The notes under the pieces are model-generated. The model did no database searches and was not told the origin of the DNA. It worked only from the letters and a program-made list of their open reading frames with translations. The translations under genes were made by a program, and so were the position numbers. This document shows positions 20,099 through 20,175 of a stretch of 64,000 nt of DNA, piece by piece; the stretch's first letter is position 1, and each line of letters begins with the position of its first letter. The stretch lies in the sequence record LC739533.1. One strand, 5' to 3'. This stretch comes from Escherichia phage phiWec179.

Positions 20099-20175
20099 AA
20101 TGCTGGGACTCGGCAGGATTCGATACCTGCAATTCCAGAAGCCTCTTGGCGACTGAGGGTTTACCTTAACTCTAC
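20099..20175 (-). tRNA. tRNA-like element, non-canonical (8-nt T-loop, no anticodon arm found)
   Basis: Acceptor GGACTTG/CGAGTCC and T-arm GCAGG-TATCGAAT-CCTGC present, but no 5-bp stem with 7-nt loop found in the body; no encoded CCA. Confidence 0.25.

Follow-up and report, generated by a model that had tools for sequence, protein, structure and literature searches.

An anticodon-less, tRNA-shaped RNA gene in the tRNA array of Escherichia phage phiWec179 and its phage-restricted family with an eight-nucleotide T loop

What is a tRNA-shaped element without an anticodon doing inside a phage tRNA array? The question is raised by a stretch of 64,000 nucleotides (nt) from Escherichia phage phiWec179 (LC739533.1), which was analysed as a whole and is called the window below. 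The sequence is the same as in Escherichia phage phiWec181/phiWec186 (Phapecoctavirus, Stephanstirmvirinae), with window coordinate 1 at position 53451 of LC739535.1. Its tRNA array runs on the minus strand from 19056 to 21113, with ten tRNAs found by ARAGORN and Rfam. A preliminary description, made from the letters alone, had placed a non-canonical tRNA-like element at 20099-20175; an element does lie there, but it is encoded on the minus strand, from 20181 down to 20106, and is shifted by about 6 nt. It is a genuine RNA gene, conserved, strand-specific and structured, from a tRNA-like family restricted to phages; it lies on the same strand as all ten tRNAs of the array and, lacking an anticodon, is unable to decode.

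The element is 76 nt long with a discriminator C at 20105, and reads 5′ to 3′ GGACUUG-UA-GAGUUAAGGUAAACCCU-CAGUCGCC-AAGA-GGCUUCUG-GAAUU-GCAGG-UAUCGAAU-CCUGC-CGAGUCC-C. Its parts, followed by its two neighbours, are as follows.

20175-20181, minus strand: acceptor 5′ strand GGACUUG (RNA positions 1-7), pairing with 20106-20112; the nucleotide at -1 is U.
20173-20174, minus strand: U8-A9 connector; U8 is a tRNA core position and is invariant in Stephanstirmvirinae.
20156-20172, minus strand: D-arm-like region GAGUUAAGGUAAACCCU (positions 10-26), with GG in the loop, a weak or uncertain stem and a hypervariable C-tract.
20136-20155, minus strand: central arm CAGUCGCC-AAGA-GGCUUCUG (positions 27-46), in place of an anticodon arm, from the minimum-free-energy (MFE) and RNAalifold folds.
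20131-20135, minus strand: variable-loop equivalent GAAUU (positions 47-51), whose final U is position 48; GAAUU is common to both Stephanstirmvirinae alleles.
20113-20130, minus strand: T arm GCAGG-UAUCGAAU-CCUGC (positions 52-69), with the 8-nt loop at 20118-20125.
20106-20112, minus strand: acceptor 3′ strand CGAGUCC (positions 70-76), joined directly to the T stem with no spacer, as in a tRNA.
20099-20105, minus strand: discriminator C (20105) and a 6-nt spacer AGCAUU up to tRNA-Thr; CCA is not encoded.
20024-20098, minus strand: tRNA-Thr(UGU), downstream of the element, called by ARAGORN and Rfam.
20189-20317, minus strand: open reading frame (ORF) of 42 amino acids (MLFDNWFDLEKVCIGITFTGGAPEYKYAMLQTNGLSVRLQSI) with a GGAGG ribosome-binding site, upstream of the element; context, not part of the RNA.

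All the sequence features described earlier were confirmed. The complementary acceptor strands GGACUUG and CGAGUCC form 7 base pairs (bp), one of them U.G, stacked directly on the 5-bp T stem GCAGG/CCUGC as in tRNA, and U8 is also present. The T loop UAUCGAAU carries the one extra base that had been noticed, being 8 nt long, and does not conform to the canonical 7-nt loop (U54 U55 C56 R57 A58 N N). The central arm consists of 6 Watson-Crick pairs, a 2x2 internal loop (two mismatches in an 8-position stem) and an AAGA tetraloop. Since this arm is closed by a 4-nt loop, the element has no anticodon, in agreement with the earlier claim that a canonical anticodon stem-loop is missing, and nothing in it offers a triplet in a 7-nt loop on a 5-bp stem. 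CCA is indeed absent from the 3′ flank, C-AGCAUU, whereas nine of the ten canonical tRNAs of the array encode it. The MFE fold gives the acceptor, T and central helices with an MFE z-score of -2.27, and RNAalifold yields the identical three helices with no D stem predicted for the element.

Automated tRNA annotation had been proposed as the refutation test for this element. ARAGORN leaves the element uncalled though it calls the ten neighbouring tRNAs; the Rfam tRNA model (RF00005; gathering score 29 bits) has no match at 20106-20181 even at E<=10; and neither ARAGORN nor Rfam makes a transfer-messenger RNA (tmRNA) call at the element. No standard tRNA is thus returned, the finding stands, and a canonical or unusual tRNA was rejected as its identity.

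BLAST located the nearly invariant element, with at least 94% identity, in 87 phage records, none of which annotates it as RNA. Among eight loci with the window-type allele, its mean difference is 1.9 nt (maximum 4) as against 14.9 nt (maximum 32) for the adjacent tRNA-Thr. The C-tract 3′ of the D loop is the only hypervariable spot, reading CCCUC, CCCCC, CCUCC, ACCCC or CCCCCC among relatives. Central-arm variants among the relatives comprise a tetraloop change from AAGA to AAUA and a change of C31 to A that creates an A-U pair, and in phage arall a G-C pair of the T stem has become G.U. No similarity to the element was found in 5,426 complete E. coli genomes.

A second allele occupies the same slot, between tRNA-Asn and tRNA-Thr, in about 40 records of the sister genus Justusliebigvirus, which includes phage phi92. 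This phi92-type allele reads (G)UGCUUG-UA-GAGUUAAUAGAAACCUC-UAGA-AUUU-UCUA-GAAUU-GUAGG-UAUCAAAU-CCUAC-CAAGCA(A). From the window type to the phi92 type, a C-G pair of the T stem becomes U-A with pairing kept, acceptor pairs 2 and 3 are changed on both sides, and pair 6 passes from U.G to U-A. The 8-nt T loop is retained with G replaced by A at the purine position, giving UAUCRAAU for both alleles, and the central arm is an unrelated shorter hairpin, CUAGA-AUUU-UCUAG, with a 5-bp stem and an AUUU loop. The discriminator is A in the phi92 type and in phages W22, arall and KKP_3264, and C in the window. In these last three phages, all of Justusliebigvirus, the Phapecoctavirus-type allele adjoins a Justusliebigvirus-type tRNA-Thr, which indicates that the alleles are exchanged as cassettes.

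Two phages carry the element in altered surroundings or form. In phiWec188 (locus L003, about 1680-1800, minus strand) and MirsaeidiM_Esher1 (L016), an insert of about 120 nt, lacking in the window, separates the element from tRNA-Thr; over the first 45 nt it shows about 85% identity to T4 rnaD (‘species 2 RNA’), and the 3′ end GGCGCA is common to both. Because the insert resembles T4 rnaD, an rnaD-like stable RNA is present in some Phapecoctavirus tRNA arrays; it is separate from the element, and membership of the element in the T4 rnaD family was rejected. In Escherichia phage MirsaeidiM_Esher1 (360-480) the element itself is enlarged by a tandem repeat of 45 internal nt, GUAGAG through GGAAUU, possibly a genuine variant, possibly an error of assembly.

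The same T arm was then found far outside these phages. When IMG/VR was searched for GAAUU plus the T arm, the arm turned up in an unrelated 81-kb viral contig (L021), where a perfect 8-bp acceptor pair encloses it and an intron-bearing tRNA comes next. The T-arm core by itself, 14 nt long, gave at least 120 viral loci in IMG/VR; among the matches listed, 84 of 131 core occurrences extend to a 5-bp T stem, and 56 distinct elements possess a perfect 7-bp acceptor abutting the T stem in the manner of a tRNA. These 56 elements are 63-212 nt long and show 42 different acceptor sequences. All told, the T arm recurs in at least 60 additional tRNA-shaped elements, carried by unrelated viral contigs and by Lactobacillus phage SAC12B (Herelleviridae; Gram-positive host), where a clear member, 119 nt long, lies amid tRNA-like genes that have no annotation. 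Of the two possibilities raised in the preliminary description, the class of tRNA-shaped non-coding RNAs is therefore supported by a wide viral family, far beyond one array.

Conservation within the family follows the tRNA core. Among the 56 members, U8 is found in 55, G10 in 53, A14 in 44, A15 in 53 and a U before the T stem in 55, and the window T arm U-GCAGG-UAUCGAAU-CCUGC is identical to the family consensus. The D arm of most members is the tRNA-Leu-like UGGCGGAAGAUAGACGC, with a 3-bp GCG/CGC stem, and most members are without G18G19. The central domains extend from about 20 to about 150 nt and are well structured, the smallest members having a 4-bp hairpin; no k-mers are shared among these domains above shuffle expectation. 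It is the frame, not the central insert, that is conserved. ARAGORN made no tRNA call on the 56 elements, save one doubtful case.

A separate scan with the 5′ motif alone recovered 25 elements whose T arm is of this kind, with covarying stems (GCAGG/CCUGC, CCAAG/CUUGG, ACCAG/CUGGU, GUAAG/CUUAC, GUGGG/CCCAC and GCUGG/CCAGC) and the loop UAUCRAAY. It also recovered 22 sister ‘type B’ elements with the 3′ arm GCAAGGG-UGARAGU-CCCUUGC. Type B RNAs share the 5′ half (a variable paired acceptor and UGGCGGAAGAUAGACGC), an idiosyncratic central domain, tRNA proximity and the lack of an Rfam match, but differ in the 3′ arm, where a 7-bp GCAAGGG/CCCUUGC stem with the 7-nt loop UGARAGU stands against a 5-bp stem with the 8-nt UAUCRAAY. 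No Rfam 15 match was obtained for type A or type B members even at permissive thresholds. The exact 19-nt T-arm string occurs in 44 fetched IMG/VR loci, in two contigs of metagenome-assembled genomes among 100,044 species genomes, and in none of the 5,426 complete E. coli genomes. Matches in Gordonia phages were rejected as canonical 7-nt loops aligned with a gap, and L008, L019 and L020 as chance matches inside coding regions; a copy in Rhizobium phage RHph_TM30 has the T arm, lacks the acceptor 3′ strand and is ambiguous.

Some contigs found in these searches hold further unusual RNAs. L021 (750-869, plus strand) and L056 (1468-1645, plus strand) carry tRNAs with insertions of about 47-100 nt in the anticodon region, with Rfam tRNA scores of 36.7 and 30.5 bits, and L056 also carries a permuted tmRNA (RF04321, 49.6 bits). 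L159, L166 and L192 (type B or related) have minihelix-like modules with canonical T arms nested in their central domains, e.g. GUCGAACG...CACGUGGUUCGAUUCCACG-CGUUCGAC; these are tRNA-like units embedded in a tRNA-like frame.

Pairing statistics were computed for 36 aligned members, none of them from Stephanstirmvirinae. Paired cells amount to 91.9% versus 37-45% with slid partners, and acceptor cells are paired in 96.8%, percentages inflated by the use of acceptor and T-stem pairing as selection filters. Double changes were seen in 14 of 16 pairs, and the observed covariation was reached by none of 500 shuffles. Non-Watson-Crick pairs in family stems were G.U in 18 cases versus A.C in 6, and all tRNAs within 500 nt of members (29 of 29) lie on the member’s strand. 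A covariance model, R1, was built from the same alignment with no Stephanstirmvirinae sequence and run unfiltered on the whole 64-kb window. Its top match was exactly 20106-20181 on the minus strand, at 45.3 bits (E=7.6e-8), a score of which the T arm, also the search key, supplies much; the best true tRNA reached 31.4 bits. The phi92-type allele scored 31.7 bits, the SAC12B member 38.2 bits, and the duplicated 121-nt version in MirsaeidiM_Esher1 41.8 bits. That R1 ranks the element first supports family membership, with the window D arm as the exception, and it is very probable that the element is a functional member of the 8-nt-T-loop family. The marks of this family are a 7-bp acceptor of free sequence but strict pairing on a 5-bp T stem, the 8-nt loop UAUCRAAY, the core U8, A14/A15 and U48-equivalent, and a central limb of no fixed size, anything from a 12-nt hairpin to about 150 nt.

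The preliminary description had also spoken of two such elements in one array. A second anticodon-less tRNA-shaped element does exist, at 19136-19214 on the minus strand in the gap between tRNA-Met and tRNA-Ile, and is probably the first element of that description; with a 7-nt T loop and an R1 score of 15.8 bits, however, it belongs to another family. It has a 6-bp acceptor UCCCGU/ACGGGA, the canonical T arm GCUGG-UUCGAAU-CCAGC, an interior of two small hairpins and an MFE z-score of -2.7; it is kept in phAPEC8 and phiWec188 and absent from Justusliebigvirus.

Does the family coincide with any known RNA? It shares gene location and orientation with canonical tRNA but lacks the anticodon arm and the 7-nt T loop, and mostly G18G19. 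With type-II tRNA-Leu it has in common the 7-bp acceptor on a 5-bp T stem, U8, A14/A15 and the U48-equivalent, as well as the D arm in most members, and the family looks derived from tRNA-Leu. T4 rnaC (‘species 1 RNA’, 139 nt; its ‘stable RNA’ label is a GenBank annotation) likewise lies in a phage tRNA cluster on the tRNA strand and, like the element, sets an acceptor-like stem and a T arm around a large interior without an anticodon. It differs in its canonical 7-nt T loop (CCGGG-UUCGAAU-CCCGG) and in the lack of sequence similarity, and with an R1 score of 11.5 bits (E=0.24) its family membership was rejected, leaving an architectural and contextual analogue only.

Two further kinds of non-decoding tRNA mimic were compared. 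YrlA, the tRNA-like domain of bacterial Y RNA (RF02553), occurs in bacteria and some phages. Its topology is inverted, with a Ro-binding stem built from the two termini and a loop capping the acceptor-like stem. It was rejected since the element has no RF02553 match and makes its acceptor stem from its own 5′ and 3′ ends; the only sub-threshold YrlA match in the region overlaps tRNA-Ile and tRNA-Pro. RNAs of the tmRNA type are marked by G3.U70, the identity pair for alanine, and by a consensus of their own in the T arm and at the 3′ end, whereas the element has A3-U70 and the phi92 type G3-C70; with no model match and the wrong identity pair, tmRNA and mini-tmRNA were rejected. Among tmRNA-like genes without a coding sequence (CDS), those of mycobacteriophage DS6A and some plastids are about 65 nt long with no anticodon and no coding part (PMC11915505), and the phage-encoded CDS-less RNA of DS6A was reported to inhibit host tmRNA (PMC11915505). 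By analogy, the DS6A RNA offers a functional precedent for anticodon-less phage tRNA-like RNAs. The family was not found described in the literature on phage tRNA-like or anticodon-less RNAs, tRNA-mimic decoys and T4 species 1 RNA. An unnamed listing is possible in a 2023 catalogue of about 8,500 candidate structured RNAs from IMG/VR, which mentions ‘tRNA or tRNA-like’ candidates without detail (PMC10690425).

Taken as a whole, the best explanation is a selected RNA gene whose product is a 76-nt, L-shaped, non-decoding tRNA mimic of a phage-restricted tRNA-Leu-like family, acting in trans; its chance of being right is put at about even. Processing, stability, trans action and partner can be inferred as follows. 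The element would be co-transcribed with its neighbours in the tRNA array. Host RNase P would cut the 5′ end at G20181, with U at -1 and the coaxial 12-bp stack of acceptor and T stem as aids, while the RNase P cut at the 5′ end of tRNA-Thr, 7 nt downstream, would free the 3′ end, the short trailer being trimmed by exonucleases. The host CCA-adding enzyme may then extend the trimmed element. The mature RNA would act in trans through its acceptor, T arm and elbow as a mimic, decoy or competitor for a common bacterial tRNA-binding factor, candidates being defences or toxins directed at tRNA and factors of tRNA maturation or of translation; the central limb would be dispensable or lineage-specific. 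The top half and elbow, conserved in phages of Gram-negative and Gram-positive hosts alike, together with the free acceptor sequence and ‘anticodon’ limb, make top-half tRNA mimicry in trans the likeliest mechanism, yet confidence in it as a specific mechanism is low.

Besides the filtering and the T-arm share of the R1 score given above, four observations weigh against this explanation. The window D arm UAGAGUUAAGGUAAACCCUC is off the family consensus, its R1 alignment has two non-canonical pairs, and its stem is unsupported; other members with a deviant D arm, a minority, include L034, L040, L095 and L210, the last with an arm UA-GAG...CUC in the window style, and the tRNA-Leu-like D arm is a typical, not universal, family feature. 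No partner gene recurs: when ORFs within 3 kb of 52 loci were clustered, no cluster was present in more than four loci, so that any decoy target is pure conjecture. No tRNA lies within 500 nt in 38 of 50 non-Stephanstirmvirinae loci (12 have one), and co-processing with tRNAs is thus not general. Finally, the missing CCA of the window element and the discriminator varying between C and A among close relatives both speak against aminoacylation as a conserved role.

The released RNA might instead be functionless, the element being a cis-acting processing or punctuation signal whose shape recruits RNase P and 3′ enzymes, or which forms a stable 3′ end or terminator, so as to separate or stabilise the upstream tRNA-Asn or 42-amino-acid ORF transcript and the downstream tRNA-Thr. 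The position of the element, 7 nt before tRNA-Thr and just behind the stop codon of the ORF, or behind tRNA-Asn, agrees with this, as do the U at -1 (U in 35 of the 56 members) and the 12-bp acceptor/T stack that make a good RNase P substrate, the lack of an encoded CCA with a varying discriminator, and the U-rich tails after many family members. RNase P, however, needs shape and not sequence, so that neither the near-invariant 8-nt T loop and GCAGG/CCUGC across unrelated hosts nor the conserved U8, A14, A15 and U48 core is explained. Most members, moreover, stand alone with no tRNA within 500 nt, and canonical tRNAs of the same array, e.g. Arg/Met and Ile/Pro, adjoin without such spacers. A purely cis-acting role is accordingly judged unlikely, though worth keeping in view.

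An anticodon-independent carrier or ribosome-rescue modulator is a poorer prospect, and a rather improbable one. Here the RNA, after CCA addition, would be charged by an anticodon-blind synthetase and would donate its amino acid, sequester the synthetase or EF-Tu, or interfere with tmRNA like the DS6A RNA. E. coli leucyl-tRNA synthetase is not known to need the anticodon or the variable arm. The family D arm UGGCGGAAGAUAGACGC and the A15-U48 pair are tRNA-Leu-like, and R1 cross-matches tRNA-Leu and tRNA-Ser genes. Encoded NCCA is enriched (10 of 56 members versus fewer than one expected), A is the commonest discriminator (24 of 56), and the DS6A precedent (PMC11915505) also speaks for this role. 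Against it, the window has C73 and its relatives A73, none with an encoded CCA; acceptor sequences are unconstrained, G3.U70 is absent, most members are without G18G19, and ARAGORN and Rfam give no tmRNA-like signal.

The tRNA frame could also serve as a scaffold for cargo, supplying only stability and processing, with the lineage-specific central insert as the working part, such as an antisense regulator, an aptamer or a protein-binding hairpin. Central domains of 12 to about 150 nt that are structured and unrelated between lineages, some with nested minihelix-like modules, would fit such a design, and the two Stephanstirmvirinae alleles differ mainly in the central arm. The ‘cargo’ of the window, however, is merely a 20-nt hairpin, and that of the smallest members a 4-bp hairpin; a generic frame, besides, needs no 8-nt T loop, and a canonical tRNA frame would do. 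The scaffold role is improbable on these grounds.

The remaining two explanations are contradicted by covariation and conservation. A decaying tRNA pseudogene or an unusual, still-decoding tRNA would suit the array location, the tRNA-like acceptor and T arms that tRNA finders miss and the hypervariable C-tract of the D region, but it is very improbable: the element is less diverged than the functional tRNA-Thr and keeps its helices through compensatory changes, more than 60 independent family members are all anticodon-less, a 4-nt loop on an 8-pair arm is unable to present an anticodon, and no similarity was found in the E. coli genomes searched. The ongoing tRNA decay suggested in the preliminary description is thereby contradicted, anticodon lack being the rule in a wide family. 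A DNA-level element, such as a recognition site of a homing endonuclease or recombinase or an att-like site whose inverted repeats mimic RNA helices, could account for the mosaic slot with its two alleles exchanged between genera and its neighbouring position held by the ORF or tRNA-Asn, for GIY-YIG endonuclease genes near three family members and for the extreme conservation of the T-arm DNA sequence, but has hardly any likelihood, since acceptor and T-stem covariation preserves pairing and not sequence, G.U is tolerated over A.C, tRNAs are co-oriented in 29 of 29 cases and tertiary-core positions are conserved.

Around the element, promoter-like sites were observed at 21353-21325 and 20764-20735, no minus-strand terminator-like site was found between 20338 and 20024 (tRNA-Tyr to tRNA-Thr), and tRNA-Thr is probably co-transcribed with the element. 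The slot of the 42-amino-acid ORF holds, in phAPEC8 and phi92, an unusual 86-nt tRNA-Asn(GUU) with a long variable arm. Elsewhere in the array, tRNA-Tyr (20339-20422, minus strand) is the sole canonical tRNA without an encoded CCA, having UCA after the discriminator in place of the CCA of phAPEC8 and phiWec188. At 20641-20726 on the minus strand, in the tRNA-Ser(UGA) slot, lies an unannotated type-II tRNA-like gene with the acceptor GGAAGGG...CCUUCC-U-CCA and the anticodon loop CUUGAAA; ARAGORN misses it, and Rfam tRNA-Sec scores it at 37 bits, below the gathering score of 47. In its body it is far from the tRNA-Ser(UGA) that phiWec188 and VivaForever have at this position, and it represents a divergent allele of that tRNA. 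A long imperfect hairpin (GGGUUGCCAGAA...UUCUGGUUGCCC) lies in the 98 nt between tRNA-Gln and tRNA-Gly (19539-19636, minus strand) and could be another structured RNA or a processing signal. In Salmonella phage SPLA5a (Seunavirus; L006, 3337-3412, minus strand), a ‘tRNA-???’ call of ARAGORN with a 4-base anticodon (agat), directly after tRNA-Thr, is a tRNA with an enlarged anticodon loop.

In conclusion, one element skipped by annotation is under stronger constraint than a real tRNA and is part of a widespread, phage-specific and covariation-supported family. Phage tRNA clusters are being reread as counter-defence loci against tRNA-cleaving immunity (PMC10264068, PMC13096335), and the non-tRNA RNAs of these clusters are ignored because annotation tools skip them. 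The family itself appears undescribed, while phage-encoded non-decoding tRNA mimics are already known as a kind. It may possibly represent an undescribed, virus-restricted, tRNA-Leu-derived class with a distinctive elbow that acts as a mimic against a conserved bacterial tRNA-binding activity, e.g. as a decoy for immunity or toxins, although this is held with well under even confidence. Such a family would add a new natural design of the tRNA elbow, an 8-nt T loop without G18/G19. Its carriers include cultured and tractable phages, namely the E. coli phages phi92, phAPEC8 and relatives and Lactobacillus phage SAC12B, so that the role of anticodon-less tRNA mimics in phages is directly testable. 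If true, the finding would offer a possible functional handle on a fifty-year-old puzzle, the non-tRNA stable RNAs, such as T4 species 1 and 2, encoded in phage tRNA clusters.

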